From an uncultured bacterium (GTDB lineage: Bacteria > Omnitrophota > Omnitrophia > Omnitrophales > Aquincolibacteriaceae), in NCBI GenBank assembly GCA_964434115.1, contig CAYSSX010000011.1, positions 3,605 through 67,604 on the forward strand: DNA of 64,000 nt, read 5' to 3'. Below the pieces are notes generated by a model that saw only the letters and a program-made list of their open reading frames with translations, was not told the origin of the DNA and searched no databases. A program made the translations under genes and the position numbers. This document shows positions 12,924-49,479 of the stretch, piece by piece; within the stretch, counting starts at the first letter, position 1, and each line of letters begins with the position of its first letter.

Positions 12924-12929
12924 GCCACC

Positions 12930-13045
12930 GGGCACCCATAAATGATTTTAAAATAAAGCTTTAGGGTGGTTGTTCACATATTCACAAGCCTTAATATTAT
13001 GATGACTATATTTAAAATTTTGATAGAATAAAAGAAAAGGGGAGA
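12930..13045. other. AT-rich dnaA-dnaN spacer, a candidate DNA-unwinding element / second oriC part
   Basis: AT-rich runs such as ataaatgattttaaaataaagc and cttaatattatgatgactatatttaaaattttgatagaataaaag stand out against the GC-moderate surroundings. Confidence 0.4.
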
Positions 13046-13049
13046 TGGA

Positions 13050-14150: not shown

Positions 14151-14151
14151 C

Positions 14152-16931
<2,780 letters not shown>

Positions 16932-16974
16932 AGATCCAGTTTCTTAACCTCCAAAAAGAGGGAAGGTAAATAGT

Positions 16975-27836: not shown

Positions 27837-29581
27837 TTTTCGTTTACCGATCTCTGAAGCAGGCTTTCCAGCTGGCCGGCAAGAGGCAGTGCCCCCAGCT
27901 GAAATAAAATTTCCTGTTCGGTTTTTGCCGAGGTCCTGTTGCCGGATTTTAGAAGTGCTACCGCGCGATTGAAATGAGACGAAGGGTTGAAGGGATCGTT
28001 GTCGACGGCCTTATTGTAAAAAAGAAGAGCCTCTCGGAGCTTTCCCTGAAGGAGGCAGACATTCGCAAGATTGTTGTAGCTGTGCCCAAGGAGATGCCTG
28101 TCGTCCGGAATCTTTTTGGCGTAGCCAATGGCCCGCTTGAAGCTCTTGGAAGCCATCAGGAAATTTTTTTGCTCACCGTACATCGCTCCGAGGTTGTTGT
28201 AAGTGGCAGCGTTTCGAGGGCTCAACTCAACGGCCCTTAAGCAGTAGGGAATGGCCCGCGAAAAGTTTTTCTCATCTTTCCAGGCGAGGCACAGCCGCGC
28301 ATAGCCGCGAGCCTTGGAAGGGGATTTTTGGATCACATCTTCCCAGATTGTAATTTCGCTTTTCCAGGCTTTATTTCTTTCGTAAGTCAAAACAGAAAAA
28401 ATAAGGACAATGACCCCTAAAGCGGCCAGCGCTTTTTGGGGTCCGCGCATAACCGCAAAAAAAGAATAAGTCAAAACCGCCGCAAAGCCTGCCATGGGAA
28501 GATAGAGACGGTGTTCAAAAATAACATCCCGGATAGGTAAAATTCCCGACTCCACACTCAATGAAACAAAGAACCAGAGCACGCCCCAAAAGAGCAGGCG
28601 GTGCCGCGAACGAATGCAAAAAGCGGCGGCCAGGATGGCGAGGATCAAACCCGCGGAGAGCAGGGGCGGCGCAGAAAAAAAGCTGTGAGAGACCGGGAAA
28701 TCGTAATCCAGGTTTTGGTTTGCAGGAAAAATAAGCAGACGAAGGTAGGTTCTGATGACGCTGAGCTGCGTTAAGAAGTAATCGGCTCCAAAGGCGGTGG
28801 GGTAACCGTAGTAAAAATGAGGACGGAGATAAAAGCCCAGTTTTCCCGAGGCTGCAACCGCGGCGGGGATCAGAAGAATCGCGGCGGCAAAAGGCACGAG
28901 ACCCAGGAGGCGCTTCTTCCGGGGGGTAGAGCCATCAAAGAAAAGCCATTCAGCGAGCAGGATCATCACGGGAAGCGTTGCCGAGATTTCTTTACTGAAG
29001 AGGGCCAACACCATGGCGAAAAGAGACAGAGCATAAAAAAGGCGGCGGCCGGAAAACCGGAAAGTAAGGTAGGAAACCACGCTTAAAAGATAGAGAAAGG
29101 TGGCTAGAACCGCAAACCGCTGCCAGATGTAAGTCACCGCTTGAGTTTGAATCGGATGACATAGAAATACCAGAGAAGCAGCCCAAGCTGCCCAAGCCCC
29201 TGAATTTTCAGGAATGCAGCCGCGCGCGCGCGGAGACGCTGAGAGAAGCTGAAACATTCGAAAAACCAGCAGCGAGGCGCCGACATGCAGCAAAAGATTC
29301 GTGAGGTGATAGCCCGCGACCGAAAGGCCGTGGATGCGAAAATTAAAGGCGAAAGTCAGAAAAGTGAAACAGCGGGTTACATTGTCACCTTCACAAGATT
29401 TGAAAAGCGGGTACGGGGGACGTAAAAAAGGATTGTCCCGGATGGAGCCGATACCGTCAAAGTGAAACCCCGAGTGGAAAGTGTTGGAATAAATTAAGAA
29501 ACCCAAAAAGAAGTTTAGAAAAAGGAGGCCTAAAGGAAAAAGGTGCTTCTGACGGACGTCCCGGGAAAGGCCTTTAGACAT
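27833..29581 (-). CDS. Polytopic membrane protein with C-terminal TPR repeats (DUF1736/PMT_2, TMTC-like GT-C glycosyltransferase family)
   Basis: 582 aa. About 10 predicted TM helices N-terminally, including a HLTNLLLH motif. The C-terminal ~200 aa contain TPR-like repeats (YNNLGAMYGEQKNF..., YNNLANVCLLQGKLREALLFYNKAVDNDPFN). Confidence 0.65.
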   Translation of the reverse strand: MSKGLSRDVRQKHLFPLGLLFLNFFLGFLIYSNTFHSGFHFDGIGSIRDNPFLRPPYPLFKSCEGDNVTRCFTFLTFAFNFRIHGLSVAGYHLTNLLLHVGASLLVFRMFQLLSASPRARGCIPENSGAWAAWAASLVFLCHPIQTQAVTYIWQRFAVLATFLYLLSVVSYLTFRFSGRRLFYALSLFAMVLALFSKEISATLPVMILLAEWLFFDGSTPRKKRLLGLVPFAAAILLIPAAVAASGKLGFYLRPHFYYGYPTAFGADYFLTQLSVIRTYLRLLIFPANQNLDYDFPVSHSFFSAPPLLSAGLILAILAAAFCIRSRHRLLFWGVLWFFVSLSVESGILPIRDVIFEHRLYLPMAGFAAVLTYSFFAVMRGPQKALAALGVIVLIFSVLTYERNKAWKSEITIWEDVIQKSPSKARGYARLCLAWKDEKNFSRAIPYCLRAVELSPRNAATYNNLGAMYGEQKNFLMASKSFKRAIGYAKKIPDDRHLLGHSYNNLANVCLLQGKLREALLFYNKAVDNDPFNPSSHFNRAVALLKSGNRTSAKTEQEILFQLGALPLAGQLESLLQRSVNEK

Positions 29582-30830
29582 AATGGATCTCAGGCAAAGG
29601 TTCGCGGGTTATTTTTTGATTTTTCCACTGAAGGGGAATGGCCAAGAGACCTTTTTTGACCGGAGAATTCTCCAGGGAAGCATGGAAAGCCTCTTGATCG
29701 TGGAGATTGAAAACAAGAGTTCGGGCACTTCCTTTTTCGATCCCCTGGAGACGGAGAAGGCGGGCGCGTATTTGATAAGTTCCAGAATTTAAAATCCCAG
29801 CCGGAAAAAAAACAGAGCAAAGAAAATGGCCGTGCCCGTCCGGGAGCATGCCTTGCGGAAGGGTCTCCCGATAGAGCAGAAGACCGTCAATGCGCTCCAA
29901 ACATATTTCCAGCGAAACGTTTAGGGAAGCATCGCGGACAAAGTACTCGATCTGAACCTGCATGGGCGAGCTCTTCGCGGGGCGGGGCTGATGATCCAGC
30001 AGGCGGAGCGCCGTGATCTGCGCGGGCGCGTCTGCGGTGAACGGAAAGGTTTCAAAAGTCCTTTCTGTGGAAAGGGAGTCGAGGTATGTGCGAATGACAT
30101 TTTTGATGGGGCCATAGGCCGCCAGACGGCCGCCATCCATCAAAAGCCCCTGCCCGCAATAACGCACAAGAGCGTTGATGTCATGGCTTACCAGCATCAC
30201 AGTTCTGCCTTCTCCCGTGATGAAATCCATCTGAGCCCGGCATTTTTTTTGAAACCCAAGATCGCCTACGGCGAAGACCTCGTCGACTAAAAGAATTTCG
30301 GATTCAAGATGCGACGCGATCGAAAAGGCCAGGCGCAGGTACATGCCCCAGGAATAGCGTTTGACGGGAGTGTTTATAAACATTTCCAGCTCTGAAAAAG
30401 CAATAATGGCCTCGAGCTTTCGCCGGATTTCCCGGCGCTTCATGCCGAGGATCGCCCCATGGAGATAAATATTGTCTAACCCTGAGAGCTCCGGATGAAA
30501 GCCCGCGCCGATCTCAAGAAGGCTCGCGGTGCGGCCGCGTAAAACAACCCTGCCTGAAGTCGGTTCCGTGATGCCGGATAAAATTCTGAGCAATGTTGAT
30601 TTCCCAGCCCCGTTATTTCCCAGGACGCCAACAACTTCTCCTCGTGAAATTTCAAAGGAAACATCCCGCAGCGCTTGCAAGGAGTCGAGGTGTGACGGGC
30701 CGACTCCAGCCTCCTTCCGCTTGAAAAAGTTTTTTGCCAGCCAGTTTCGGCCCGAGCGGATGAGGCCCGCTTCAGAGGGGAGGCGGTAAGCCTTGGATAG
30801 ATTTTCAGCCTGAATCATCGCCGCGGGCAT
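29574..30830 (-). CDS. wzt: Polysaccharide ABC exporter ATP-binding protein (Wzt/TagH-like), with a C-terminal glycan-binding domain
   Basis: Walker A GVLGNNGAGKST, a signature/LSGG-like region, and a ~170-aa C-terminal extension typical of Wzt. Confidence 0.8.
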   Translation of the reverse strand: MPAAMIQAENLSKAYRLPSEAGLIRSGRNWLAKNFFKRKEAGVGPSHLDSLQALRDVSFEISRGEVVGVLGNNGAGKSTLLRILSGITEPTSGRVVLRGRTASLLEIGAGFHPELSGLDNIYLHGAILGMKRREIRRKLEAIIAFSELEMFINTPVKRYSWGMYLRLAFSIASHLESEILLVDEVFAVGDLGFQKKCRAQMDFITGEGRTVMLVSHDINALVRYCGQGLLMDGGRLAAYGPIKNVIRTYLDSLSTERTFETFPFTADAPAQITALRLLDHQPRPAKSSPMQVQIEYFVRDASLNVSLEICLERIDGLLLYRETLPQGMLPDGHGHFLCSVFFPAGILNSGTYQIRARLLRLQGIEKGSARTLVFNLHDQEAFHASLENSPVKKGLLAIPLQWKNQKITREPLPEIHYV

Positions 30831-31691
30831 CTAGAGCGTATCCACGAAAGTTCGCTCGGCGCGTGAAAAAACCAGCGCTCCCGAAATCAGCACCGCGAAG
30901 GAGACCGCGACAGAGAGTGTCACATCCCATGAGGAAATACGGCCGGTCCCCAAGAAAAGAACACGCGAAAATTCGATAAGCGTGGCCATGGGGTTGAGCC
31001 CCGCCCAAGGGCGAAAATTTTCAGGGATGGATGAAACGGGATAAATCACAGGGGTTATAAACATCAAAAGATTAACAGCAAAATCGAGAATGTGCTGCAG
31101 ATCCCGGTGCTTCACCGTAAGCGAAGCCACCCACAAGCCCAGTCCGAGCGTGGTACTCATGAGTAAAAACAGGCAGGGAGGCAGGAGGAAAAAAAGCCGG
31201 AGATCAGGGGGCGCCGGCTCCCAGCCCCTGAAAAAAAAGAAGAAGGCATAAAAAGAACCAAAGACAAAGCCTTGGGCCGCGAGTGTAACAAGATTCGCAA
31301 GCAAAAGAGAAAGAGGAATTGTGAGCCGGGGAAAGTAGACCTTTCCTAAGAGCGAAGCGTTAGAAGTTAGAGAGCCGGCAATCCGCGTAAAGGTGTAGGA
31401 AAAATAACGCCAAAAGAGAAGACCGCAAAGATAGAACAAAATAGCCGGAGTGCCGCCCGTGGAAACCCCCAGAGTTTTGTTGAAAATAATGACAAAAACA
31501 GCTGCCGCCAAGACCGGCTGAACAAGAAACCACAAAGGCCCGAGAAGCGTCTGATGAAAAGCCGTGTGCAAATACCTGCGATAAAGGAAGTAAACAAGGT
31601 CTTTGTACTCAAACAATTCACGCCACTTGAGATTTAAGAGCCCCCGAGTAGGTTCGATAATACGCAGGTAACCGCCCTCACGATTCCGCAT
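30831..31691 (-). CDS. wzm: ABC-2 type polysaccharide exporter permease (Wzm-like). The start is probably the internal ATG at 31691, not the track's 31901.
   Basis: Six-TM ABC-2 profile beginning after MRNREGGYLRIIEPTRG. The longer track ORF would overlap the upstream gene by more than 200 nt. Confidence 0.7.
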   Translation of the reverse strand: MRNREGGYLRIIEPTRGLLNLKWRELFEYKDLVYFLYRRYLHTAFHQTLLGPLWFLVQPVLAAAVFVIIFNKTLGVSTGGTPAILFYLCGLLFWRYFSYTFTRIAGSLTSNASLLGKVYFPRLTIPLSLLLANLVTLAAQGFVFGSFYAFFFFFRGWEPAPPDLRLFFLLPPCLFLLMSTTLGLGLWVASLTVKHRDLQHILDFAVNLLMFITPVIYPVSSIPENFRPWAGLNPMATLIEFSRVLFLGTGRISSWDVTLSVAVSFAVLISGALVFSRAERTFVDTL

Positions 31692-32475
31692 GACAAAGAG
31701 TCCTTTCGGAAGGCTGGGCCAAGACACGATCCCTGACGAGTTCAAGCTGGGATATTTTGTTTTCAATCCCGCAGGTCCAGTTGGCATGATGTAAGACGAT
31801 GTCGCCGGGAACCCCCAGACGGTCTCCCTTGGCCCAAATTTTTTCAGTCTGGATTCCAGGACTGAAAAAGCTGGGCGGGAAATAGCGCAGACGAACTCCA
31901 TAAGAACTTCCTAGATGAGGCTTTAAAAAGAGCAAAAGAGACCGCATCGGCCCTTGCAGCCAAACAAAGCGGCTCAAAAATGAAACGATCTTCCAAAGAA
32001 TGCGAAGGGGCGCACGCGCTCTCCTAAACCACAGATCGTTGAGAGCTTCTTGGTCGTGTTTTTCAGGAAAAAGGGCCATTTCCATCTGTACGTCCCGCCA
32101 CAAGCGGATCGTTTTGGCATTGGACCGGCAGGCGAAGAATCCGGTTCCCAAGGTCCCCTGGGGAGAATCTTGCAAAACAGCAAGGTCGCAGCGGGCCATG
32201 AGGGTTAGAACCCAAGGCTCTGTTTTTCTGAAAAATTGGATATCGACATCTGAAAAGAGGAAAACTTCCCCCGGATTTTCGCGGAGGGCCCGAAGGATAA
32301 GAGAAACCTTTTTATGAATAGCACGATTCCAAGAGGAGTCCTTGTAATTTCCAGTCCCCGCTGAGGGGTCTGAATCCAGTTGAAGGAGGTAAGGGTCTTT
32401 GAGGCTGGGGAGAAACCATTGCTCGGCCAATGGCCGGTGAGAGACAGAACAAAGACAATAGAGCTTCAGCGGCAT
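31678..32475 (-). CDS. Putative nucleotide-diphospho-sugar transferase (Nucleotid_trans-like, DxD)
   Basis: 265 aa. The FLFSDVDIQFF DxD-type motif, and its placement inside the glycan cluster. Confidence 0.4.
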   Translation of the reverse strand: MPLKLYCLCSVSHRPLAEQWFLPSLKDPYLLQLDSDPSAGTGNYKDSSWNRAIHKKVSLILRALRENPGEVFLFSDVDIQFFRKTEPWVLTLMARCDLAVLQDSPQGTLGTGFFACRSNAKTIRLWRDVQMEMALFPEKHDQEALNDLWFRRARAPLRILWKIVSFLSRFVWLQGPMRSLLLFLKPHLGSSYGVRLRYFPPSFFSPGIQTEKIWAKGDRLGVPGDIVLHHANWTCGIENKISQLELVRDRVLAQPSERTLCHAES

Positions 32476-36445: not shown

Positions 36446-37444
36446 TTGAACAAACGCCTTCTCCTGTACCTTGCTGAAAATTACAACGGAGCACCCCCCG
36501 CATCAGAAGCCCCCTGCATTTCCTCGCACTGGCAGCAATGTCTTGAGCGGCTCAAAATCAAAACCGATGATGAAGGGAAAATTATTTTCCTGGCCGCCCG
36601 GGACACGGGGCTCGACACCTTTGAGCGGCGGGGTTTTTTAGATGCATTGACCGAGTTCCTAAACATGGCTATCCATTGGCTGCGGCTTCCCAGAAAAAAA
36701 GAACTGTTAAAGCTCTCCGCGAAGGCGCTTTCAGTTTGCCGGGCGATGAAACGCCCTTTTAACTTCGACGTTTTCCGCCAGCTGTACTGTCTGGCAGTCA
36801 TTAAGGAAAACTTTGGCGTTCAGGGGGCCCCCGAGCTTTGCCGGAATGTGCTCATGGTGGGGGACGGCTACGGGATTCTTTCCGCGGTTTTCAAAGAGGT
36901 TTTTCCAGAAAGCCGTTTGGTTCTGGTCGATCTCGGGAAAACACTATTGCTTCAGGCGGCCTATTGCCAGCTCGCGCACCCAGGGAAAAAGCACAGGCTT
37001 TTTAACGAAGTTGACGCGTCGAGCAGCGACTTCGTGTACTGCCCGGCCGAGTTTTTGGAGAAACTCGAAGGGCTCCGGTTCGATTTAGCAGTTAATATCG
37101 TTTCGATGCATGAGATGAATGCCGGGAGCATCCGCCGCTACTTTGATTTTTTCCGGAAAAATATGAACGAGAGAAATCTGTTTTATTGCTGTAACCGGGA
37201 GTACAAGCAGCTCAAAGGAGGCGAGAAGACGCTCTTTTCTGATTATCCGTGGCACCCGGAAGACAAAATATTTTTTGATGAACCATGTCCGTGGCATCAG
37301 GTTTTTCTCTCCAGAAGGTCAGGCCGAAGCCCGGGCTTGGGCGGGTTTAGATTCCTCCCCCGGCTGAACTATTATCACAGCGAATCAAAAGGGTATGGGA
37401 GGATAAGGCACCGTCTTTGTGTCTTGGGGGTGGAGACACCTTGA
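36446..37444 (+). CDS. Putative class-I SAM-dependent methyltransferase (sugar O-methyltransferase-like)
   Basis: Motif I-like VLMVGDGYGILSAVF followed by LVLVDLGKTLL and DLAVNIVSMHEMN (motif IV-like). Confidence 0.45.
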   Translation: MNKRLLLYLAENYNGAPPASEAPCISSHWQQCLERLKIKTDDEGKIIFLAARDTGLDTFERRGFLDALTEFLNMAIHWLRLPRKKELLKLSAKALSVCRAMKRPFNFDVFRQLYCLAVIKENFGVQGAPELCRNVLMVGDGYGILSAVFKEVFPESRLVLVDLGKTLLLQAAYCQLAHPGKKHRLFNEVDASSSDFVYCPAEFLEKLEGLRFDLAVNIVSMHEMNAGSIRRYFDFFRKNMNERNLFYCCNREYKQLKGGEKTLFSDYPWHPEDKIFFDEPCPWHQVFLSRRSGRSPGLGGFRFLPRLNYYHSESKGYGRIRHRLCVLGVETP

Positions 37445-37461: not shown

Positions 37462-38022
37462 TTAACGGGGTTTTTTCGGGAACACGCGAACAGCGATGTC
37501 CTTCGGAGCCTTTGCTAAAAAGCAGATTGTTTTTTTTAAGAAACCTGGCAGCCGGACCCTGCCGTTGTTCAATTCCCGAAGCCTTTTAAAAATAACATGA
37601 AGAGTCCATTCCGCGAGCGATAAAAAGCCAATCAGGCGCGACGAAAGCCTTGATCCGGCCGACGAAAAATTCACGGACTTTTTATCTCTTCGCGCCCCCT
37701 GCACAATGCCCACAAGGCTCTCCTTAAAAAATGGAGGATCCGCGACCCAGGCGTTGTCCGGCTTTGCAATCATTCCGAACTTTTCGCCGATGGGCTTTCG
37801 ATACAGAAAACGGTGAACCCAGCGATGCCCGCGCGCCGTATAGACAACAATGTCTCCCAGCCGAAGGTCCTGTGCTGAGACAGGCCGGACAAGAATTAAA
37901 TCTTCATCTTGGAGCACAGGGAACATGCATTGCCCCTTATAAATGAACCGCACAAGACCCTCGCGGGTTTCGACAGTATTAATAAGCCGCAGAGCTTCTT
38001 CCTTAATGGGGGTATCAGCCAT
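37462..38022 (-). CDS. Soluble S24/S26-type (signal-peptidase-I / LexA-like) peptidase homologue, in which the Ser/Lys dyad positions carry Cys and His
   Basis: 186 aa. KGQCMFPVLQDEDLILV aligns with SPase-I box B (G-D-S-M-x-P-T-L..GD.L.V). LGDIVVY aligns with box C (RGDIVV). RWVHRFLYRKPIGE aligns with box D (V-K-R-vIGlPGD). So S becomes C and K becomes H. There is no N-terminal TM anchor. Confidence 0.55.
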   Translation of the reverse strand: MADTPIKEEALRLINTVETREGLVRFIYKGQCMFPVLQDEDLILVRPVSAQDLRLGDIVVYTARGHRWVHRFLYRKPIGEKFGMIAKPDNAWVADPPFFKESLVGIVQGARRDKKSVNFSSAGSRLSSRLIGFLSLAEWTLHVIFKRLRELNNGRVRLPGFLKKTICFLAKAPKDIAVRVFPKKPR

Positions 38023-38087: not shown

Positions 38088-38438
38088 TTGAACCCTGTGG
38101 CCCGAGGGAAACGGCTGTTACCAAACCGGAACAATCCGTTGACCCCCGAAATGTGCAGAGCTAAACTGGTCTTAATGCAAATCCTTGTCGATAAAGAAGT
38201 TGTTTGCTGGAGTAAGCTGGGAGACGAAACGCTCCTGCTGAACCTTGATACAGGCTATTATTACACGCTCGATGAGCTGGGCGGCTTGATCTGGGAGATG
38301 CTGATCGAGCAGCATGATCAGGAAAAGATCGTAGAACGGATTGTCTCCGAGTACGAAGCCGAAAGAAAGTCTGTGGAAAGTGACTTGAAAACTCTTCTGG
38401 AAGAACTTCAGAGAGAGGGTATGATTGTCATTAAGTAG
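38088..38438 (+). CDS. PqqD-family protein (RiPP recognition element-like). Start uncertain among TTG 38088, GTG 38097 and ATG 38175.
   Basis: The C-terminal 88 aa, MQILVDKEVVCWSKLGDETLLLNLDTGYYYTLDELGGLIWEMLIEQHDQEKIVERIVSEYEAERKSVESDLKTLLEELQREGMIVIK, fit the PqqD/RRE pattern (..vL.N..TG.yy.LN..g..IWe.l..........l...Y.v......Dv..fl..L...GLi). It is paralogous to the gene at 48091. Confidence 0.8.
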   Translation: MNPVARGKRLLPNRNNPLTPEMCRAKLVLMQILVDKEVVCWSKLGDETLLLNLDTGYYYTLDELGGLIWEMLIEQHDQEKIVERIVSEYEAERKSVESDLKTLLEELQREGMIVIK

Positions 38439-38449
38439 GGAGGTCCGTT

Positions 38450-38563
38450 GTGGAAAACGCAGAGAAACAGGAAAAGCCCGAAAGCAATGGAAAGAAGAAG
38501 CTTTATAAGAAGCCGGCCATAAAAAAATATGAACGGCTCTATGAACCCGGAATCGGATCTTAA
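38450..38563 (+). CDS. Unannotated 37-aa basic peptide, a candidate precursor/substrate peptide of the adjacent modification system
   Basis: GTG at 38450, preceded by GGGAGG (38438-38443) with a 6-nt spacer. Translation: (M)ENAEKQEKPESNGKKKLYKKPAIKKYERLYEPGIGS, stop TAA at 38561-38563. It starts 12 nt after the PqqD stop. It is homologous to the peptide at 47852 through a shared Y-x-K-P-A-(I/L)-x-K motif. Confidence 0.6.
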   Translation: MENAEKQEKPESNGKKKLYKKPAIKKYERLYEPGIGS

Positions 38564-38598: not shown

Positions 38599-40422
38599 AT
38601 GAAACCCTCTATGCCCTTCCCCCGCGTCAGTTGTATTGTTCCTGTCTTCAATGGAGAGAAGTATTTGTCCGAAACCATCGAAAGCATTCTTGGCCAAACC
38701 TACTCAAACATTGAAACTATCGTTATTGATGACGGCTCCACGGACGGCACCGCCGAAGTTTTAAAGCAGTACACTGGACGGGTCCGGGCGTTTAAACAAA
38801 ACCATTCAGGGCCTTCTGCGGCCCGGAATTTGGGCATTGAAAAATCATCGGGAGAACTCATCGCGTTTCTTGATGCGGACGATCTGTGGGCACCCGAAAA
38901 AATTCAGCAGCAAGTCGAACATCTTCAAGCTCACGCAGAACTTGATGTGTGTTTTACACAGGCCAGGAATTTTTGGATTCCCGAATTAGAGCATGAAAAA
39001 AAGAGGCTTGAGGAAGAAGGGCTCGTAAAATTTATCCACCCCTTTTTGGTCTGCACCTTCTTGGGCAGAAGAGAGATTTTTGACAAAGTCGGGATGTTTA
39101 AGCCGGAGCTTGTGATTGGCGAAGATAGTGATTTTTTTTGCCGGATGAAAGACGCGGGAATTCAAAGCGGTGTTATTTCGAAAAATTTAGTTTTCAGAAG
39201 ACTGCATGAGAGCAACCTCACCCGGAACATGTCGCTGTTCACCCGTGTGGAGCTTCAGCAGAGAGCCGCAGAGGCTCTGGGGAGGTATCGGCAAAAAGAA
39301 GCGGAGGCATCCTGCTCAGAGCAGCCCGGCAAGGCAGAAGGAAAGCCTTCGAGCCGGAAAGATGCCGATATTTTTTTTGAAGCTTTAAGCAAGGTCTATA
39401 CTCGCGCACGAAACAGCCGCGCCGGTGCAGCGGATTTTTATTATTCCATCGCCGGACATACCGTAAAACTTTGTTTTGCCGGGCCGGCACTTATTTCCCT
39501 GATGACCCCGGCACTTGAACATCTCCGAGTCAAGACACAGGAGCGCGCGGAGCTGACAATCGGCCTCTGTGATTTTGATTCTAATGACGTGGTAATGCCG
39601 GAGGTTCCTTGTACCTTTAAGGATTATACGGCGCGCCGGAAAACGACAGAATTTAATGATGATGAATACCTCCGGGCAGACTATCAAGAAAGAGCTCAAA
39701 AGCTCCACGTTCTCCACGCACAAAAAGACGAAGCCTTCTTTTTTGTAAAAAACAGCGCCTCCGTTCTCCAGGCTGATCAAGGCGCCCCGCTTGCCAAAAT
39801 TTTCCGCTGGTGGATGCGAAAAAAGGGGATCCAGCTTGTTCATGGCGGAGTTGTTGGAATGAATGGCACCGGAATTTTGCTGGCCGGAAAAGGGGGTTCG
39901 GGAAAATCGACTACAGCGCTCACCTGCCTGGCCGGAGGCATGGACTACCTAAGTGATGACTATTGCCTTGTCGAGTCCAAGCCGGTACCGGCCGCCTACA
40001 GTTTATATTGCAGCGGTAAAGTGCAGTCCAATAACCTTGACCTTGTGCCCGGGCTTTCGAAGTTAAGCAGTAAGGGCCGCCCGGATCAGGAGTCAGGGAA
40101 AACCCTTTTCTTTGTTCAGGAGCTGTTTCCTGAAAGAATAACCCGGCAACTTCTTCTTAAAGCGATTCTTATTCCCGTGATCGAAGCGCGCCCGCAAAGT
40201 GAACTTATAGGAGCATCGGCTGTCGCGGCGCTTCAGGCCTTGGCCCCGAGCACTCTGTTTCAGCTTCCCGGGTCAAAAAATAAGGACTTTTATGAGCTGG
40301 TTAAGATTGTAGAATCTCTTCCCTGTTATGTTTTCCGGGTCGGAAGCGACCCCGGGGAAGCAACGAGAATCATCCGCGAATTTTTAACCTCTCAAACGCC
40401 GGAAGCGAAGAACAAGGCTTAG
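38599..40422 (+). CDS. Bifunctional-looking protein: N-terminal GT2 glycosyltransferase fused to a C-terminal HPr-kinase-like P-loop kinase domain
   Basis: N-terminus: VSCIVPVFNGEKYLSETIESILGQTYSNIETIVIDDGSTDGT...LDADD (GT-A fold, DxD). C-terminus: LVHGGVVGMNGTGILLAGKGGSGKSTTALTCLAGGMDYLSDDYCLVE, which aligns with the HprK core (lHG..v...G.GvLi.G.SG.GKSe.AL.L...Gh.LvaDD). Confidence 0.7.
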   Translation: MKPSMPFPRVSCIVPVFNGEKYLSETIESILGQTYSNIETIVIDDGSTDGTAEVLKQYTGRVRAFKQNHSGPSAARNLGIEKSSGELIAFLDADDLWAPEKIQQQVEHLQAHAELDVCFTQARNFWIPELEHEKKRLEEEGLVKFIHPFLVCTFLGRREIFDKVGMFKPELVIGEDSDFFCRMKDAGIQSGVISKNLVFRRLHESNLTRNMSLFTRVELQQRAAEALGRYRQKEAEASCSEQPGKAEGKPSSRKDADIFFEALSKVYTRARNSRAGAADFYYSIAGHTVKLCFAGPALISLMTPALEHLRVKTQERAELTIGLCDFDSNDVVMPEVPCTFKDYTARRKTTEFNDDEYLRADYQERAQKLHVLHAQKDEAFFFVKNSASVLQADQGAPLAKIFRWWMRKKGIQLVHGGVVGMNGTGILLAGKGGSGKSTTALTCLAGGMDYLSDDYCLVESKPVPAAYSLYCSGKVQSNNLDLVPGLSKLSSKGRPDQESGKTLFFVQELFPERITRQLLLKAILIPVIEARPQSELIGASAVAALQALAPSTLFQLPGSKNKDFYELVKIVESLPCYVFRVGSDPGEATRIIREFLTSQTPEAKNKA

Positions 40423-40490: not shown

Positions 40491-41672
40491 ATGAACTCAG
40501 CAGATAAAAAAGAGCACTCTAAAGAAATACTGTTTATTCTCGAATGCCTTCAGTCGCTTATCCAAAACCGGGCGCCTGAGATAGACTCCCGGCGGATCAC
40601 CGGCCTCGACTGGAATCAGCTCCTCCGATTGGCCCGCGAGCAAAGGGTTCTGGGGCTTTTCGGGCATGTCCTCGAGAAGGGCGGGGCATTTCCTTTGGTT
40701 CCCGTGACGGTAAAAGAGGAAATCGAAAAAGGTGTTCATGAATACAACCAGGGCCTGCTGATCAAAAAGTGGCAATTTGGGTCCATTCACCGTTTATGCC
40801 GCGAGCAGAACCTCGAAATCATTCCTTATAAAGGCGCCGCCCTTGCGCTCACCGTTTTTAAAGACCTGCCTTTTCGCCGCATGAGCGATATTGATATTTT
40901 TATCCGTGAAAGCGATGCTGCGCGCATTTATCCGCTTTTTTTTAAGCAAGGCTTCGCAAGACTTGAAACGCCTTACCCTAACCGATGGCAGGCAGAGATT
41001 CTTCGGGGTGCTTATGCCGCCCCGTCAGGAAGAGAGTCCCTTTTTAAGCAAGGGTGGGACATTGATATTCATAGGCAAGCGAGATATCACATTGAAAAAG
41101 ATATCGTTTCGCTGGATATGCAGGACGTTTGGTCCAGAGCAAAGCCCAGGGCCACGGAGCTTGGAGAGGTCCTTTTTCTCGATGATATTGATCATACCCT
41201 GCTTTTGCTTTTTCACGCGATCGATCTTTTTGCCCCGCATTTCAGCCAGATTGTGGATACCGCCCTGCTGATGAAAAGCTCCGCGATTCGTAAAGAGGAT
41301 CTGATAGCAAGGCTCCCCGGAAACCTCGGCCCGGAGGCCAGTGCTTTTTTAGAAACCGCCAGCGATGCTATCGAAGAGTTTCTAGCGCCTCAGAAAAGGA
41401 GCGGAAATTTTTCAGAAGCAACGATCCGTTTTTTTGATTTGTTTTTTTACAAACGCAAGAGGACCTACGAAGAGCCGTTATCCAGCTCCGGCTGGAAGCG
41501 CCTTGCCAAAAGCCTAAAAGCCATACGGAGCGTTCGCGAGAAGGTGGTGTTTATCGCGGGATTTTTTGTGCCGGATCCAGAATACTACAAAAAGCAAGGC
41601 AAGAGCGGCCTCAGCAGTTACCTTCACCACTGGGGACAGCTGAGCTCGCGTATTTTGAAATCATTTAATTGA
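40491..41672 (+). CDS. Nucleotidyltransferase-family protein (PF14907-like 'uncharacterised nucleotidyltransferase')
   Basis: 393 aa. IPYKGAALALTVFKDLPFRRMSDIDIFI is the nucleotidyltransferase-fold G[SA]...D.D motif. This family is seen in lasso-peptide and other RiPP neighbourhoods. Confidence 0.55.
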   Translation: MNSADKKEHSKEILFILECLQSLIQNRAPEIDSRRITGLDWNQLLRLAREQRVLGLFGHVLEKGGAFPLVPVTVKEEIEKGVHEYNQGLLIKKWQFGSIHRLCREQNLEIIPYKGAALALTVFKDLPFRRMSDIDIFIRESDAARIYPLFFKQGFARLETPYPNRWQAEILRGAYAAPSGRESLFKQGWDIDIHRQARYHIEKDIVSLDMQDVWSRAKPRATELGEVLFLDDIDHTLLLLFHAIDLFAPHFSQIVDTALLMKSSAIRKEDLIARLPGNLGPEASAFLETASDAIEEFLAPQKRSGNFSEATIRFFDLFFYKRKRTYEEPLSSSGWKRLAKSLKAIRSVREKVVFIAGFFVPDPEYYKKQGKSGLSSYLHHWGQLSSRILKSFN

Positions 41673-41682: not shown

Positions 41683-42624
41683 ATGATGCGTCAACAGCTG
41701 CATTTTTTGGATATTACAATTGAACTCACCGGGGCCGCCGATTCAAATTCGCGGACTCTGCTGAAAGAGCTTCAAGGGTATGGCTCAACAGCAATCCGCA
41801 AAGATGTCTCAGGAACACTGAGCATCAAAAAGGCCGCAAACTTCAGAATTCCTAAACAAGCCTGCCTGAAAGGCTTTTGGAGATCTTCGGGACTTCGGCA
41901 CTATGCCGAAACGACAACTCATTTTTGGGTTCAAGGAAAATCAGCGATTGTCAGTAATCTGCATACCCGCGGCGTTGAAATTCATTTGGGCGATAACCCT
42001 TCTGCCGAATTTATTGCCGCGGCTAGAAACGCGATCAAGTGGCTGATCATCAAGGCTGCGGAAAAATCAGGTTATGGATATGCCCATGCGGCAGCCGCTT
42101 ATTTCCGCGGGCGGAGTATTCTTCTGCCTGGAAATCCGGGCGCCGGAAAGTCCTCCTTTGTGATGCGCCTGATGAAAGCCGGAGCCGTGGTCCTTAACGA
42201 TGATGTAACCCTGATTCATCTGGGTTCTGGCCGTATGATCCCGCTGGCCCTGAACCTTCACGTTAAAGGGGATTTTTCTAAACGGTTCAATGTTTCGCCG
42301 CGCGAGCGCTGGGCATGGTTTCGCGATGAGGCGGTAAAAGAAGCCGAAAAGGTCAAAGGGGTGGATGTTATTTTATTTCCACAGGTATGGGCAGCGTCCG
42401 AGAGCCGTGTCAAAAAACTATCGCCCGAAGAAACGGAAATACGGCTGGATGGTATTTACCTGAAAGAGATGTCCTGGAACGCTTTTCCTGCTCCATCGCA
42501 AAGAATGAAATCAGCTCACCGGAAAATGATCAAGAATGCGGACAGCTATGTTTTTTACTGCGGAACACACGAAGCAAAAATCCAGAAGCGGCTGGAGAAT
42601 TTTTTGAAAAAATATGAAGAATAA
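41683..42624 (+). CDS. HPr-kinase-like (HprK-related) P-loop kinase
   Basis: YAHAAAAYFRGRSILLPGNPGAGKSSFVMRLMKAGAVVLNDDVTLI, i.e. P-loop followed by a DD motif as in the HprK C-terminal domain. Confidence 0.6.
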   Translation: MMRQQLHFLDITIELTGAADSNSRTLLKELQGYGSTAIRKDVSGTLSIKKAANFRIPKQACLKGFWRSSGLRHYAETTTHFWVQGKSAIVSNLHTRGVEIHLGDNPSAEFIAAARNAIKWLIIKAAEKSGYGYAHAAAAYFRGRSILLPGNPGAGKSSFVMRLMKAGAVVLNDDVTLIHLGSGRMIPLALNLHVKGDFSKRFNVSPRERWAWFRDEAVKEAEKVKGVDVILFPQVWAASESRVKKLSPEETEIRLDGIYLKEMSWNAFPAPSQRMKSAHRKMIKNADSYVFYCGTHEAKIQKRLENFLKKYEE

Positions 42625-43537
42625 TCAGCGTCCTTTTTTTGTTTTTCAAGGAAAGATGCGTGTTGAGGTCCTCTCAGACAGAGCTGCCGCCAGTCAGTTA
42701 AAACGGCACCAAGACGCCGGGCGGGAGGAGAGGACTTTGCTGGCCGGCCGCCTTAAAATCTATAAAGTGAGAAGGTTCACGCCGCTCAACCACCGGGCGC
42801 TGCGCGCTCACTGCAACGGTCAAACCCGCAGGGAAGAGTATGCAAAGTCCGGGACCCACACCTACTTGGCGCCCACTTTTCAAATCCGCCTCGACAAGCG
42901 GAAGAGAAGCTGCCGCGTCGAATACTTGAAATGGGACTCCCGCCTGCTTCATGAAGTCCGGCTCCTGATACGCTGGATTATGAAATCAGCGCATCTCGAT
43001 CAGGGGTGTGTTTATTTTCCGGGCATTCTGCTGGGCTCTGACGACGGTGGCGGGGTCGCTTTTACGGGGCAGCAGGAGTGTGGGATTTTGGATGCTTTGC
43101 CGCGCGTTTCAGCTTTTGGGAGGGGCCGGCCCGGCAGTTATGGTTTTATCATGAATCCGAAGTCAAAACAGATCACAGCGCTGCCTTTTCCGGGAGTCTG
43201 CAAATATGAGAGCTCCCGGGTCTATGCTGAGGCCTTGGAAAAAACAAAACAGAAGGAGGGGGAAAAGAGCCCCCGCTTCTCCAGGAGGATTGTTTTTGTC
43301 CAATCCTGGAACCGGCCGGACTCTCACCTGGGAAGTCTTTCCAGGCGTGAAGGAGTTCTAAAACTGGATGAGCTGAACCGGAGAGCTTACGAGTATTTTT
43401 TCCCCAGTCAAAGAGAGCGTCTTTTGGAGCGCTACCAAGGCATGCGGCAGCTCAGGTTTTTTCAGCTCAATCTCGGAACAGATTCCGTGAAAGCCGCAAC
43501 GCTGCTTTCACGCTTTCTGAGGGAAGGGAAAAAGTGA
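42614..43537 (+). CDS. Hypothetical protein
   Basis: 307-aa ORF translationally coupled to its neighbours (ATGA overlap). No motifs recognised. Confidence 0.4.
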   Translation: MKNNQRPFFVFQGKMRVEVLSDRAAASQLKRHQDAGREERTLLAGRLKIYKVRRFTPLNHRALRAHCNGQTRREEYAKSGTHTYLAPTFQIRLDKRKRSCRVEYLKWDSRLLHEVRLLIRWIMKSAHLDQGCVYFPGILLGSDDGGGVAFTGQQECGILDALPRVSAFGRGRPGSYGFIMNPKSKQITALPFPGVCKYESSRVYAEALEKTKQKEGEKSPRFSRRIVFVQSWNRPDSHLGSLSRREGVLKLDELNRRAYEYFFPSQRERLLERYQGMRQLRFFQLNLGTDSVKAATLLSRFLREGKK

Positions 43538-44565
43538 AAGAAACCGTTTTTTGTACTGTGGTTTCGCGAAGCTTTTTGCCTGGAGCGTTGGCGCTGTACC
43601 GATCCCTGGAAAAGCATTGCGTTGATTTGAGTTTTACAGCGCTTGTTATAGACATCCATCCGGCCGAGGCGCGCAAACTGTCCGTAAAACTGCCTTTTCA
43701 GATCCTGACTCCCGAAGCGCTTGATGCACCCGGCCTTCGCCGTCTCTGGAAATATTATTCTGTTTTTGAACTTTGCAATGTTCTACGGCCCTTTCTGATC
43801 CGGCATCTCTTGAAAAAAAAGAAGCCCAACCAAGTTATTTATCTCGACTCGGATATCTATGTAACCGGGCGTTTTGACTATATTGAGAAAAAGCTGAATC
43901 AGTACGTTTACGCCTTTACCCCCCACACGCTAAAACCTTATCCGCTGGATTCGTTCGTGCCAAACGACCTGTCTTTGCTGCACTACGGAATTTATAACAG
44001 CGGCTTTCAGGCCTATAGAAACCATCCGCAAAGCTTCAAGGTTCTTGAATGGCTGATGCCAAGGCTCATGCTTTATGGGTTCAATGATCCGCCCCGGTAT
44101 TACGTGGATCAAAAATTTCTTCCGCTGGCAGCAGCCAGTTTCCCGGAAGGTTTTTTTTGCGTGGATCATCCAGGCTATAACATTGCTTACTGGAACCTTC
44201 ACGAACGCAAAATTGAAATAAAAGCAGGCCGTTATTTTACCCAGGGCAGCCCGGCCGTTTTCTTTCATTTCAGCGGATACGATTTAAGACGCCCCGGGGA
44301 ATGGACTCAGCGGGGGAGAAAAAAAGATCCCAGCCAGCCCTCGGGGACAAGCGGGATTTCCCTGAGGAAGCCCGCAAAGCACGCGGTGCCCACGCTCGGA
44401 AAAGTCTTGGCGGAATACCGGGAACTCCTTAAGGGATGCTGCGAGGAATTGAAAGGGGAAAAGAAAGCGGAGCTGAAAAAGCAAACGAGAAATAGAAACA
44501 GGGCCAGGTTTTTTAAAGAGGAGTACCCAAAACTCCTCAAGCAAATAAATCTTTTAAAACGTTGA
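43534..44565 (+). CDS. Putative GT-A-fold nucleotide-sugar transferase (DxD motif)
   Basis: VIYLDSDIYVTGRFDYI DxD context, with its start overlapping the upstream stop. The family assignment is tentative. Confidence 0.4.
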   Translation: MKETVFCTVVSRSFLPGALALYRSLEKHCVDLSFTALVIDIHPAEARKLSVKLPFQILTPEALDAPGLRRLWKYYSVFELCNVLRPFLIRHLLKKKKPNQVIYLDSDIYVTGRFDYIEKKLNQYVYAFTPHTLKPYPLDSFVPNDLSLLHYGIYNSGFQAYRNHPQSFKVLEWLMPRLMLYGFNDPPRYYVDQKFLPLAAASFPEGFFCVDHPGYNIAYWNLHERKIEIKAGRYFTQGSPAVFFHFSGYDLRRPGEWTQRGRKKDPSQPSGTSGISLRKPAKHAVPTLGKVLAEYRELLKGCCEELKGEKKAELKKQTRNRNRARFFKEEYPKLLKQINLLKR

Positions 44566-47851: not shown

Positions 47852-47998
47852 GTGGCAAAAAAAAAATCACAATCTCCCAAGCCTAAGACTAAGCTAGCAC
47901 CGCCGAAAGGCAGGCAAAAGAGAAAACCCTATCAAAAGCCTGCGCTTGAAAAACATAGCGAAGTTCAGTTGTGGGCGTTTGGGACCATGGGCGGGTGA
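47852..47998 (+). CDS. Unannotated 48-aa basic peptide, paralogue of the 38450 peptide and candidate precursor/substrate peptide
   Basis: GTG at 47852 with AAAGGA ~8 nt upstream. Translation: (M)AKKKSQSPKPKTKLAPPKGRQKRKPYQKPALEKHSEVQLWAFGTMGG, stop TGA at 47996-47998. RKPYQKPALEKHSEV aligns with KKLYKKPAIKKYERL of the first peptide at the protein level, but with different codons. Confidence 0.6.
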   Translation: MAKKKSQSPKPKTKLAPPKGRQKRKPYQKPALEKHSEVQLWAFGTMGG

Positions 47999-48090
47999 AG
48001 CCAGGCCCGGCAGGCTTAAAACGGATGCAATTTTAAAACGAAATCACGGGCGAATGCGGATATTGATGCAGAATCTCTTAATGGGGCAGC

Positions 48091-48375
48091 ATGTATAAGA
48101 TCGATCAAAAGGCCGTTGTCTGGAAAAAAACGGAATCCGAAGTGGTGCTCCTTAATCTAAGCACCGGACACTACTACACACTCAATGCGGCAGGCCTTGT
48201 GTTGTGGGACGGAGTTCTTAAAAAGCTTTCACCCGAGAAGATCGCTCGAAAACTGGAATCAGAGTTCGAGGTGGAATACAAAACCGCCTTTAAGGACACG
48301 CTCGAATGTCTTGATCAGCTGACCCAAGAGGGAATCATCACGAGACCGCCTACGCCTTCAACTAAAAAGAAATAA
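48091..48375 (+). CDS. PqqD-family protein (second RRE-like paralogue)
   Basis: 94 aa. MYKIDQKAVVWKKTESEVVLLNLSTGHYYTLNAAGLVLWDGVL...LESEFEVEYKTAFKDTLECLDQLTQEGII is the PqqD pattern. It starts 92 nt after the peptide gene. Confidence 0.8.
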   Translation: MYKIDQKAVVWKKTESEVVLLNLSTGHYYTLNAAGLVLWDGVLKKLSPEKIARKLESEFEVEYKTAFKDTLECLDQLTQEGIITRPPTPSTKKK

Positions 48376-48393
48376 CCCGGCCGAATTCTCCCC

Positions 48394-49479
48394 ATGGTGG
48401 ATATCGTCATCGTCACTTATAATGCGCGGTCCGAGCTCATGAAATGCCTTGAGTCGGTCCGGCGTTATACGCCCGCTTCAATGTATAAATTATATGTTGT
48501 TAATAATGCCAGCAGCGACGGCACCCGCCAATATCTTGATCAAACCCGCCTTGTGAATGGTCAGTTTTTTCATCTTCCCCGGAACCTTGGGTTCTCGGGT
48601 GCAGCCAATTGGATAATCCCAAAGCTAAAATCGGCAGACGTAGTTTTTTTGGATGACGACGCCAGGGCCACCCCAGGCTGGCTTTCCGGGCTTGTCCGTT
48701 CGGTGAAAAAATCAAAAAAAACCGGCATGGTGGGCTGCAAGATTATTTATCCAGACAAAAAAATTTTTTCGTGCGAGGTTCGGTTTGGGCCGAGAAGAAT
48801 CTTATTTTTTAAAGACAGGGACCTGGGGCAGGCCGACTACGTTAAAGAAGTGGATGCTCTGGCGGGTGCCTGCTTTCTTGTCCCGCGAAAGATTTTGAAA
48901 AAAATAGGCCCCTTTGACGAAAGTTTCTTTCCCTGTCAGGGAGAAGACTGGGATTATTGTCTTCGAATCCGGAAAGCCGGCTATAAAATTATCTACAATG
49001 GCAAAGTAAGTATTATTCACAGTAATCTTTTCCGTGCGGGCGGCGAAAAAGTAAATAAAGAAAACAAAACCCGGTTCTATGAAAAGTGGAATGCGTATCT
49101 TGCTAAGCACTTTCCGCGCAAAGACAGCCACTTTGCAGACAGACTTATGTCGAAAGCGATTGCCGCGCTTGAGGCCGGCGACAGCGAAAGGGCCTTAAAG
49201 ATCTCCGGCAAGCTGGCCAAGAGCCGCCCCGAACTTGTTGAGCTGTGGGTTCCCGCGCTTGCCTATATAAGACTTCAAAATTTCAAGAAAGCCTTACCGA
49301 AGTTAAAAGAAATTATAAAAAGGAATCCGGATAACTATTCCGCACGGAGTTACCTTACCCTCTGTTTGCGCAGCCTGGGGATGAAGGGCGAAGCGGAGGC
49401 GTACACGGAGAAGATGCTTGCCTGCGTCACAAAGAACATAGACAAAAAAAGAGCCGCCGTTTCAAGGGGCAAACCTTGA
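48394..49479 (+). CDS. GT2 glycosyltransferase with a C-terminal TPR-like helical domain (SunS-like architecture)
   Basis: N-terminus: MVDIVIVTYNARSELMKCLESV...NNASSDGT...VVFLDDDA (GT-A fold, DxD). C-terminal ~110 aa have TPR-like repeats (AIAALEAGDSERALKISGKLAKSRPELVELW...LQNFKKALPKLKEIIKRNPDNYSARSYL). Confidence 0.7.
   Translation: MVDIVIVTYNARSELMKCLESVRRYTPASMYKLYVVNNASSDGTRQYLDQTRLVNGQFFHLPRNLGFSGAANWIIPKLKSADVVFLDDDARATPGWLSGLVRSVKKSKKTGMVGCKIIYPDKKIFSCEVRFGPRRILFFKDRDLGQADYVKEVDALAGACFLVPRKILKKIGPFDESFFPCQGEDWDYCLRIRKAGYKIIYNGKVSIIHSNLFRAGGEKVNKENKTRFYEKWNAYLAKHFPRKDSHFADRLMSKAIAALEAGDSERALKISGKLAKSRPELVELWVPALAYIRLQNFKKALPKLKEIIKRNPDNYSARSYLTLCLRSLGMKGEAEAYTEKMLACVTKNIDKKRAAVSRGKP

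Follow-up and report, generated by a model that had tools for sequence, protein, structure and literature searches.

What does a protein act on when it joins, in one chain, a family 2 glycosyltransferase (GT2) domain to a kinase domain resembling HPr kinase/phosphorylase (HprK/P)? We asked this of a fusion protein from an uncultured bacterium of the Omnitrophota, encoded within a 64,000-nucleotide stretch of contig CAYSSX010000011.1 (GenBank assembly GCA_964434115.1, positions 3,605 to 67,604), referred to here as the window. A first-pass annotation of this DNA had read the protein as a single polypeptide that could both glycosylate and phosphorylate, perhaps the same peptide or glycan substrate. 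A search of the accessible literature returned no account of an HprK-like/GT2 fusion. Judged from sequence comparison, the protein is probably a peptide-directed kinase plus glycosyltransferase acting on a 37-residue peptide encoded directly upstream, in a pathway of the kind that makes post-translationally modified, ribosomally synthesized peptides (RiPPs) and resembling that of the linear polyphosphorylated peptides (LPPs); we put the probability of this reading at about 0.6. The first-pass idea of a kinase and a glycosyltransferase working on a peptide thus gains ground, as the domain calls hold, the catalytic motifs are invariant or nearly so, and a peptide and a RiPP recognition element (RRE) lie alongside.

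The fusion is encoded at 38599..40422 on the forward strand (+) as a single open reading frame (ORF) of 607 residues, and an identical protein is present on a separate public assembly contig (Logan SRR16481186), which confirms the single polypeptide described at first pass. Sixteen further proteins with the GT2 domain ahead of the kinase, 31-54% identical to the window protein, are colinear with it through the linker. In every close orthologue (45-54% identity) one ORF encodes the whole protein, not split by the frameshift that the first pass had raised as a possibility. An artefact of assembly or gene calling, through a frameshift or a lost stop codon, might be suspected from the 19 species-representative genomes in which kinase and GT2 are separate neighbours. 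Those separate genes run kinase first, opposite to the window's fusion, so a simple frameshift could not yield the order seen here; given the second contig and the colinear homologues as well, we regard an artefact as vanishingly improbable. A start at the ATG at 38599 gives the protein four extra residues (MKPS) that the orthologues lack, and the ATG at 38611 (MPFPRVSC...) aligns with the orthologue N-termini in the alignment of 17 proteins; the latter may be the true start of the gene.

The GT2 domain (GT-A fold) occupies residues ~8-230 (38620..39288, +). PF00535 matches residues 11-163 with an E-value of 6e-37 and 127.6 bits, above its gathering score of 23.3, and PF10111 and PF13641 carry the match to approximately residue 228. 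The nucleotide-sugar and metal-binding motifs D44-D45-G46-S47-x-D49 and D92-x-D94-D95 are invariant in all 17 proteins of the window's domain order, among which the G-E-D motif is nearly invariant as well. The assignment of the N-terminal ~230 residues to a GT-A/GT2 domain at first pass was therefore sound. Among solved structures it lies nearest to the GT2 domains of chondroitin and heparosan synthases, GalT1, TarS/TarP, SpsA and PglI. The domain also matches the NCBIfam models for MftF (E 6.5e-19) and SunS (E 4e-6), in both cases far below the cutoffs. The GT2 half is accordingly a generic SpsA-like GT-A enzyme, and its acceptor is not readable from the sequence.

A low-complexity and partly disordered linker of residues ~231-264 (39289..39390, +) follows, and it is variable across the 17-protein alignment. 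In the full-length structural model the predicted local distance difference test score (pLDDT) falls below 50 at residues 240-250, between helices at 216-239 and 250-273. The model as a whole has a pLDDT of 85.7 and a predicted template modelling score (pTM) of 0.82, the latter hinting at a defined arrangement of the two predicted domains.

The rest of the protein, residues ~265-600 (39391..40398, +), is predicted to be a complete P-loop kinase module with the fold shared by HprK and phosphoenolpyruvate carboxykinase (PEPCK). It carries the P-loop G430-KGGSGKST-438 (39886..39912, +), a preceding histidine (H415) and a downstream aspartate pair (D453, D454). The first pass had assigned an HprK-like kinase to the C-terminal ~200 residues on the strength of the block GKGGSGKSTTAL...LSDDYCLVE, which corresponds to residues 430-459; the HprK-like P-loop block is upheld, whereas the size is not, the module being ~340 residues long. 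The Pfam scan suggested at that time was likewise borne out in part. PF00535 stands above its gathering score, whereas PF07475 (Hpr_kinase_C) matches residues 413-460 (E 2e-6) with 27.7 bits, under its gathering score of 33.3. The NCBIfam models HprK_rel_B, hpr-ser and HprK_rel_A match the same stretch far under their cutoffs, TIGR00679 scoring 28.7 bits against a cutoff of 240 and the HprK-related A and B models 26-32 bits against cutoffs of 200. Because these family scores lie under cutoff, the fusion falls outside the HprK/P family proper. A precomputed Pfam match to PF27840 (ScmC) also covers the module.

More distant comparisons nevertheless lead back to HprK/P, despite the scores under cutoff. 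When residues 255-607 were searched against PDB sequences using phmmer, all four top matches were HprK/P, albeit weak (E 0.014-0.35), and they align exactly, as with 2qmh_A, 1jb1_A and 1ko7_A, at the histidine, the Walker-A loop and the downstream Asp-Asp, so that all three elements of the HprK/P catalytic domain are present in the module. Across 82 of 82 fusions, H415, G430, G435, K436, S437, D454 and K501 are invariant, and D453 is conserved in more than 90%. An AlphaFold model of the module built from this 82-sequence alignment reached a pLDDT of 92.3 and a pTM of 0.91. Foldseek placed it closest to the ATP-dependent PEPCK 1j3b (E 4e-11, TMq 0.55) and also retrieved the Lactobacillus casei HprK/P catalytic domain 1kkl_A (E 5e-7, 18% identity), so the predicted structure has the HprK/PEPCK-like P-loop kinase fold. 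The nucleotide-binding domains of HprK/P and PEPCK belong to one fold superfamily, and by these matches the module is predicted to be a PEPCK/HprK-like P-loop kinase. It is not the generic AAA or P-loop ATPase that the first pass had named as the competing identity.

The module is part of a large and unnamed branch. When 1.84 billion representative sequences were searched exhaustively with phmmer, 4,809 relatives had E<=1e-3, of which 1,202 reached E<=1e-30. The closest 150 consist for the most part of stand-alone proteins, 340-380 residues long, that align over the whole module, and this end-to-end alignment indicates that the fusion is a GT2 joined to a complete kinase-family protein. Among the relatives scanned, none reached any NCBIfam cutoff, which leaves the branch without a name, and one stand-alone relative weakly matches the FomB phosphonate kinase family. 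With all kinase-family matches under their curated cutoffs, the module could instead be a phosphorylase or pyrophosphate-dependent enzyme, or a nucleotide-binding, peptide-docking or regulatory domain that does no more than control or target the GT2. HprK/P is itself bifunctional, being both kinase and phosphorylase, and a stand-alone paralogue with an intact P-loop encoded elsewhere in the window could supply the kinase activity. The strict invariance of the histidine, the P-loop lysine and serine and the aspartate across 82 diverse fusions speaks against a non-catalytic or altered role, as does the lack of any other kinase in minimal cassettes such as that of locus L002 described below, and we consider such a role improbable.

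The first-pass annotation had called the architecture unusual, and this was overstated. Homologues were grouped at 90% identity and the 120 clusters listed were sorted by P-loop position. More than 100 such clusters, drawn from many phyla, carry the fusion, in one domain order or the other. Of the 120, 17 have GT2 followed by kinase, as in the window, with the P-loop at ~395-433; approximately 90 have the reverse order, with the P-loop at ~181-216, and include kinase-GT2-GT2 forms of 820-856 residues. The P-loop is missing in 12. Sources include metagenome-assembled genomes named Smithella, other Deltaproteobacteria, Nitrospirota, Bacteroidales, Lentisphaerae and KSB1. Among species-representative genomes, where the best full-length match of the fusion has 37% identity, the kinase-GT2 pair was found in Actinomycetota, Chloroflexota, Cyanobacteria, Acidobacteriota, Planctomycetota and Chlamydiota, and it is also present in the isolates Roseobacter sp. 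GAI101 and Rhodopirellula sp. SWK7.

The 19 species-representative loci with separate neighbouring genes, which overlap by 4 nucleotides in 9 of the 19, are natural unfused states of this partnership. Other partners have been joined to the kinase as well, namely PqqD, the family to which the RRE belongs (L054 4951-7050; L074 4783-6633; P0287, 485 residues), and an MsbA-like ATP-binding cassette (ABC) exporter (P0339, 941 residues). PqqD accompanies the kinase module in most module-bearing loci and is rare in loci with GT2 only. Fusions and coupled genes form a Rosetta-stone pattern that would place kinase, GT2, RRE and exporter in one pathway.

The candidate substrate is peptide A, a 37-residue precursor (MENAEKQEKPESNGKKKLYKKPAIKKYERLYEPGIGS) encoded at 38450..38563 (+), and the fusion gene does lie directly downstream of it, as the first pass had noted. 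Its ORF begins with GTG, 6 nucleotides after a GGGAGG Shine-Dalgarno sequence. The peptide carries a YxxPxI motif of the RRE-binding type (YKKPAI) and ends in serine (C-terminal stretch …YKKPAIKKYERLYEPGIGS), which is position 19 counted from the tyrosine of YxxP. Five other distinct copies have kept the peptide with variable N-termini, two copies being present in 2 orthologous loci, and all six copies end in Y[KE]KPxxKK[YF][ED]R[LI]YEPG[ILF]G[ST]-stop. Conservation is thus concentrated in the C-terminal 19 residues. A serine or threonine stands at exactly position 19 in all six of these copies (set 1), most of which end in threonine, and in a second candidate peptide of the window.

Peptide and fusion belong to a conserved gene order, consisting of a signal peptidase I (SpI)-like gene on the opposite strand, a PqqD gene, the 37/38-residue peptide and the fusion, which is kept in five orthologous loci (L002/L003, L005/L006, L007, L090 and L092) at 45-54% identity. 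The wider surroundings of this cassette differ between the orthologous loci. In L002 a minimal cassette of five genes, comprising a sugar O-methyltransferase, the SpI-like protein, PqqD, peptide and fusion, stands among unrelated genes, which delimits the functional unit. In the window and in the five orthologous loci a discrete RRE and a precursor with [Y/W]xxPxΦ and a hydroxyl acceptor (serine in peptide A) are found beside the kinase. A strict degenerate DNA pattern for the C-terminus of the peptide retrieved only 4 metagenome stretches, indicating that the form with a discrete peptide is a narrow clade.

These observations bear on a competing explanation, namely that the fusion is a polysaccharide enzyme whose GT2 extends a capsule or O-antigen-type glycan and whose kinase phosphorylates a sugar, glycan or lipid-linked intermediate, PqqD and the small ORF being separate or regulatory. 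GT4, GT2 and Nucleotid_trans genes, a tetratricopeptide repeat (TPR) protein and a predicted ABC exporter pair (29574..31901) surround the locus, and L005 and L007 keep several of these neighbours. The nearest solved GT2 relatives act on glycans or teichoic acids, while the module resembles the small-molecule kinase PEPCK and has the stand-alone relative with a weak match to FomB. Peptide, PqqD and fusion nevertheless remain together in L002/L003, where the polysaccharide genes are lacking, PqqD has been fused to the kinase elsewhere, and the peptide combines the YxxPxΦ motif with an invariant terminal Ser/Thr in the register of the LPP phosphorylation site. Since LPP clusters also lie inside capsule loci, the glycan surroundings favour neither explanation. 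We consider a purely polysaccharide role unlikely.

The remaining cassette proteins fit the peptide-directed reading to different degrees. The RRE is a discrete PqqD-family protein encoded at 38088..38438 (+), with matches to PF05402 (E 4e-16) and the NCBIfam model lasso_PqqD_Bac (E 1e-16). Against PDB entries it matches TbiB1 (4e-12) and PbaB1 (9x90; 5e-10) better than LppB (9x8z; 9e-4), and by these scores it is a predicted homologue of the lasso-type B1 proteins. The SpI-like protein (37462..38022, reverse strand) is an archaeal-type peptidase of the S24/S26 kind (PF00717 E 2e-5; NCBIfam sigpep_I_arch E 4e-10, under cutoff) and a candidate analogue of the leader peptidase LppS of LPP clusters. 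Its motif GQC32MFPVL has a cysteine, Cys32, at the nucleophile position, and His70 and Asp89 are conserved. The cysteine is kept in L002 6886-7437, L005 6769-7380 and L007 3569-4147, with serine in the distant L009 43-879, and the protein could be a version of the LppS-type leader peptidase that uses Cys-His-Asp. The NanM-like putative sugar O-methyltransferase of 332 residues (36446..37444, +) scores 66.4 bits to TIGR04371 against a cutoff of 44, and orthologues adjoin the cassette in L002/L003 and L090 (E 7e-118 and 2e-119). Its presence beside the minimal cassette in both L002 and L090 suggests that the product is glycosylated. Downstream of the fusion, an LppN/PsmN-type nucleotidyltransferase-like protein of the NTP_transf_5 family is encoded at 40491..41672 (+; PF14907 E 8e-30), and the same family adjoins fusions in L004, L007, L088 and L089.

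The closest known system is that of the LPPs (Popov et al., Nat Commun 2026, PMC13381572), whose core consists of the archaeal-type SpI-like peptidase LppS, the discrete RRE LppB, the HprK-like kinase LppK, the NTP transferase LppN and an MsbA-like exporter. Their clusters sit inside capsule loci and are described as restricted to Bacillota. LPP leaders follow the consensus YxxPxVLxHQxIxFETxxS. The residue that LppK polyphosphorylates is Ser3 of the core, at position 19 when counting starts with Tyr-16 of YxxP, and the kinase did not accept threonine in its place; LppS cleaves after Thr-1 in an RRE-dependent manner with the triad S29/H68/D93. LppN showed no activity in the heterologous host, and what the LPP pathway finally makes is not known (PMC13381572). 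The window shares with this system the SpI-like peptidase, discrete PqqD/RRE, HprK-like kinase, NTP_transf_5-type transferase, a YxxPxΦ precursor with a hydroxyl acceptor 18 residues past the tyrosine, the polysaccharide-locus setting and the lack of a lasso cyclase. Both window peptides have YxxPx[IL] and the Ser/Thr at position 19; the HQxIxFET part of the consensus is missing in peptide A, and the second peptide, B, keeps its His9.

The differences are as clear. The window's kinase is joined to a GT2, the host belongs to the Omnitrophota (the best named relatives of its seryl-tRNA synthetase, SerRS, are from Candidatus Omnitrophota, with identities of up to 80%) and not to the Bacillota to which LPPs are said to be confined, the precursor is 37 residues long and ends at the acceptor residue, compared with an LppA core of 45 residues, the acceptor is often threonine, the peptidase has cysteine for the serine nucleophile, and no MsbA-like exporter is adjacent to the cassette, such exporters occurring in sister loci. 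By the RRE comparison above, the window protein is closer to the lasso B1 proteins than to LppB. The system works like that of the LPPs but is not demonstrably of the LPP clade.

Phosphorylated lasso peptides provide the second point of comparison. A His-Lys-Asp-Asp motif was shown to be essential in lasso-peptide kinases by mutagenesis, the kinases PadeK, ThcoK and SyanK prefer a C-terminal serine, and in pseudomycoidin hexoses are added onto phosphoserine in a PsmN-dependent manner, a separate glycosyltransferase not being excluded (reviewed in PMC9266682). Residues H415, K436, D453 and D454 of the module would correspond to the lasso-kinase motif through the HprK/P alignment. The window has in common with the lasso kinases and PsmK-PsmN the HprK-like kinase, the C-terminal serine, a [Y/W]xxP leader and an NTP_transf_5 protein. 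It differs in the covalent joining of GT2 and kinase, and neither a lasso Asn-synthetase-like cyclase nor a B2 peptidase was found by Pfam scans of the substantial ORFs in the 64-kb window.

Other relatives are more remote. HprK/P shares with the module the Walker-A loop, the preceding histidine, the downstream Asp-Asp and the fold of the catalytic domain; the module differs in its scores below cutoff, its different N-terminal half, the lack of an HPr/CcpA context and its predicted small-peptide substrate. The NCBIfam HPr-rel-A system and ScmC (PF27840/TIGR04249) also tie an HprK-related P-loop protein to a PqqD-family chaperone, but they are not GT2 fusions, and the radical S-adenosylmethionine (SAM)/SPASM partners of ScmC are absent from the window cassette. 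TIGR04249 is not among the listed matches of the fusion, and we do not assign the cassette to the SynChlorMet systems; a literature search for ScmC and SynChlorMet returned only unrelated acronyms. In the deltaproteobacterial locus L088, where PqqD, NTP_transf_5 and two further GT2 genes accompany a kinase::GT2 fusion of the reverse order, a radical-SAM/SPASM gene (10346-11317) follows the fusion, recalling the SynChlorMet ScmC/ScmD cassette. SunS/ThuS and MftF are likewise GT-A/GT2 enzymes acting on a ribosomal peptide or peptide-derived product, but the similarity to the window protein is only that of GT2 enzymes in general, and none of them is fused to a kinase.

If the fusion is a peptide-directed kinase and glycosyltransferase, the reaction might run as follows. 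The discrete PqqD/RRE would bind the YKKPAI motif of the 37-residue peptide, as expected from its homology to lasso and LPP recognition elements, and would thereby present the C-terminal tail to the HprK-like module. Using ATP, the module would phosphorylate the terminal Ser/Thr hydroxyl once or several times, a step suggested by the identity in register with the LppK site and by the preference of lasso kinases for a C-terminal serine. The tethered GT2 would then move a sugar from a nucleotide diphosphate sugar to the same intermediate, the fusion channelling the kinase product to the next enzyme. Most economically, the sugar would be placed on the new phosphate to give a Ser/Thr-O-phospho-sugar, like the hexose on phosphoserine in pseudomycoidin. 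Phosphate monoesters are glycosylated by certain GT2 enzymes, among them dolichol-phosphate mannose synthase and ArnC; the window's GT2 is not especially close to either. We hold this placement of the sugar only tentatively, at somewhat worse than even odds. The NTP_transf_5 protein, the sugar O-methyltransferase and further glycosyltransferases may elaborate the product, and the SpI-like peptidase with its cysteine at the nucleophile position would remove the leader.

The end of the precursor admits a different view of the peptide's purpose. It could be a disposable scaffold or primer, of which the terminal Ser/Thr or the Φ-Gly-Ser/Thr end is phosphorylated and glycosylated and then released as a small phosphoglyco-amino acid or tripeptide, or anchors a phosphodiester-linked exported glycan. 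The precursor ends exactly at the acceptor, a cut equivalent to that of the LPPs would leave I-G-S, L-G-T or F-G-T, and it is the C-terminal 19 residues that are conserved. Many glycosyltransferases, the sugar O-methyltransferase and the predicted ABC exporter pair are close by. Mycofactocin offers a precedent: an RRE protein takes part in the processing of a C-terminal dipeptide, which then receives several sugars from the GT2 enzyme MftF, whose model the window's GT2 matches under cutoff. That match is, however, generic GT2 similarity, and the SpI-like protein, with cysteine for the serine nucleophile, is a predicted leader peptidase only. A scaffold or primer seems to us an outside chance.

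Several points weigh against a peptide-directed kinase and glycosyltransferase of the LPP type. On the kinase side, every Pfam and NCBIfam family match lies under its curated cutoff, and the best structural matches are PEPCKs rather than HprK/P, which makes a non-protein phosphoryl acceptor possible. LppK rejects the Ser3-to-Thr exchange, while most of the peptides here end in threonine. In the much larger sister group of loci, an invariant aspartate (LDP) and not Ser/Thr occupies position 19 counted from the aromatic residue, and the acceptor logic or chemistry may therefore differ across the superfamily. The GT2 is nearest to enzymes that elongate glycans sugar to sugar, not to GT2 enzymes that glycosylate phosphates or peptides. 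Among the accessory proteins, the peptidase has cysteine at the nucleophile position compared with the serine of LppS, the RRE is nearer to lasso B1 proteins than to LppB, and the minimal cassettes of the orthologous loci L002 and L005 lack NTP_transf_5. The LPP-equivalent cut would leave a core of only three residues, which is atypical for a RiPP, and the chemistry downstream of the domain assignment is what we infer from sequence.

The sister group also shows what appears to be a variation in how recognition element and leader are arranged. Its PqqD proteins are ~140-160 residues long with a conserved tail, [YFW]xxPx[LV]xx[YF]xDMx[DE]LLLLDPIH[ED]VDExGWP, and are found in L004 (10562-10984), L010-L020, L027, L034, L041, L045 and L051, as well as in L088 (5312-5773) and L089 (3611-4060). 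Such a protein resembles an RRE with a fused leader-like YxxPxL motif of its own. In its widest form, the proposal would make PqqD-kinase-GT2 systems a large cross-phylum class of phospho-glycosylated ribosomal peptides, with a phospho-Ser/Thr serving the GT2 as the handle for a phosphodiester-linked sugar or glycan, and with the precursor of the window's clade consisting of a leader and a three-residue core. We offer this generalisation as speculative and, as a whole, doubtful.

Further genes follow the cassette in the window. A stand-alone HprK-like kinase paralogue of 313 residues (41683..42624, +) has an intact P-loop and the DD motif; it matches HprK_rel_A under cutoff (E 5e-10) and the module profile with an hhalign probability of 93.8% (E 2e-7). 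Its gene is overlapped by 11 nucleotides by an ORF of 307 residues (42614..43537, +) without a Pfam or NCBIfam match, which shows a weak C-terminal match to the 313-residue kinase (81 residues, E 3e-4). An ORF of 343 residues (43534..44565, +) is marginally GT8-like (PF01501 E 0.0099, under cutoff).

A second cassette (47852..52484) contains the same parts unfused, namely peptide, PqqD, GT2-TPR protein, sulfotransferase and kinase. Candidate precursor peptide B (47852..47998, +), of 48 residues and with the sequence ...KPYQKPALEKHSEVQLWAFGTMGG, carries a threonine at position 19 from the tyrosine of YxxP (…YQKPALEKHSEVQLWAFGTMGG). It is followed by a second PqqD/RRE of 94 residues (48091..48375, +; PF05402 E 2e-13), a stand-alone GT2 of 361 residues with a C-terminal TPR region (48394..49479, +; PF00535 E 5e-20, with TPR matches), a sulfotransferase of 353 residues (49476..50537, +; PF13469 E 1e-19) and a stand-alone HprK-like kinase of 327 residues (50534..51517, +; PF07475 E 2e-5, under the gathering score; HprK_rel_A E 2e-15, under cutoff). 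SunS consists of a GT-A domain and TPRs, a layout that the GT2-TPR protein resembles. The sulfotransferase suggests that the product of the second cassette is sulfated as well as phosphorylated and glycosylated. Neither an SpI-like nor an NTP_transf_5 gene is part of the second cassette. A 344-residue ORF without a family match (51450..52484) overlaps the gene for the 327-residue kinase, to which it has no similarity. A five-sequence MAFFT alignment had put forward this ORF and the 307-residue ORF as P-loop-less HprK-like paralogues; profile comparison does not bear this out, with probabilities of 2.8% for the 307-residue and 0.2% for the 344-residue ORF, and the idea was dropped. An ABC-2 transporter pair (53958..55657) lies downstream of the second cassette.

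Elsewhere in the window, the surroundings of the chromosomal replication origin span ~4881..19461, with parB, parA, gidA/mnmG and yidC on the reverse strand and dnaA (11499..12914), dnaN, gyrB and gyrA on the forward strand; G+C content is as low as 0.42 at 12-14 kb, and a sign change of the GC skew lies near 10-12 kb. A glycoside phosphorylase of family GH94, of the cellobiose/chitobiose phosphorylase type, is encoded at 983..3457 (reverse strand), an RlmN-like radical-SAM enzyme at 56647..57708 (+), and a B12-binding radical-SAM enzyme, beside methyltransferases and a GT2, at 59446..61059 (reverse strand). A promoter and terminator scan of 37.3-44.8 kb was uninformative, with 6 promoter-like sites compared with 4.8 expected, and a PADLOC scan for defence systems was negative except for two marginal P-loop matches.

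Known cases of HprK-like phosphorylation of ribosomal peptides comprise a few lasso peptides, joined in 2026 by the LPPs. The system described here is best filed as a variation on the LPP and phosphorylated-lasso tailoring logic, set apart by its kinase-GT2 fusion, its occurrence outside Bacillota and its minimal precursor, and it carries HprK-like peptide chemistry well past the Bacillota. The physical fusion of a kinase to a GT2 is direct evidence, at the genome level, for phosphorylation and glycosylation as consecutive steps on one substrate, and this evidence is the stronger because the fusion recurs in both orders, and alongside translationally coupled genes, in many phyla. The five-gene cassette of L002 with its 37-residue candidate substrate would offer an unusually tractable system for the chemistry. 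If the wide generalisation to a cross-phylum class is true, the GT2 would be the missing glycosylation partner that was left unassigned in the LPP and pseudomycoidin studies, and the product of the window's clade may be a small phosphoglyco-tripeptide or a surface-exported, peptide-primed glycan rather than a conventional RiPP.

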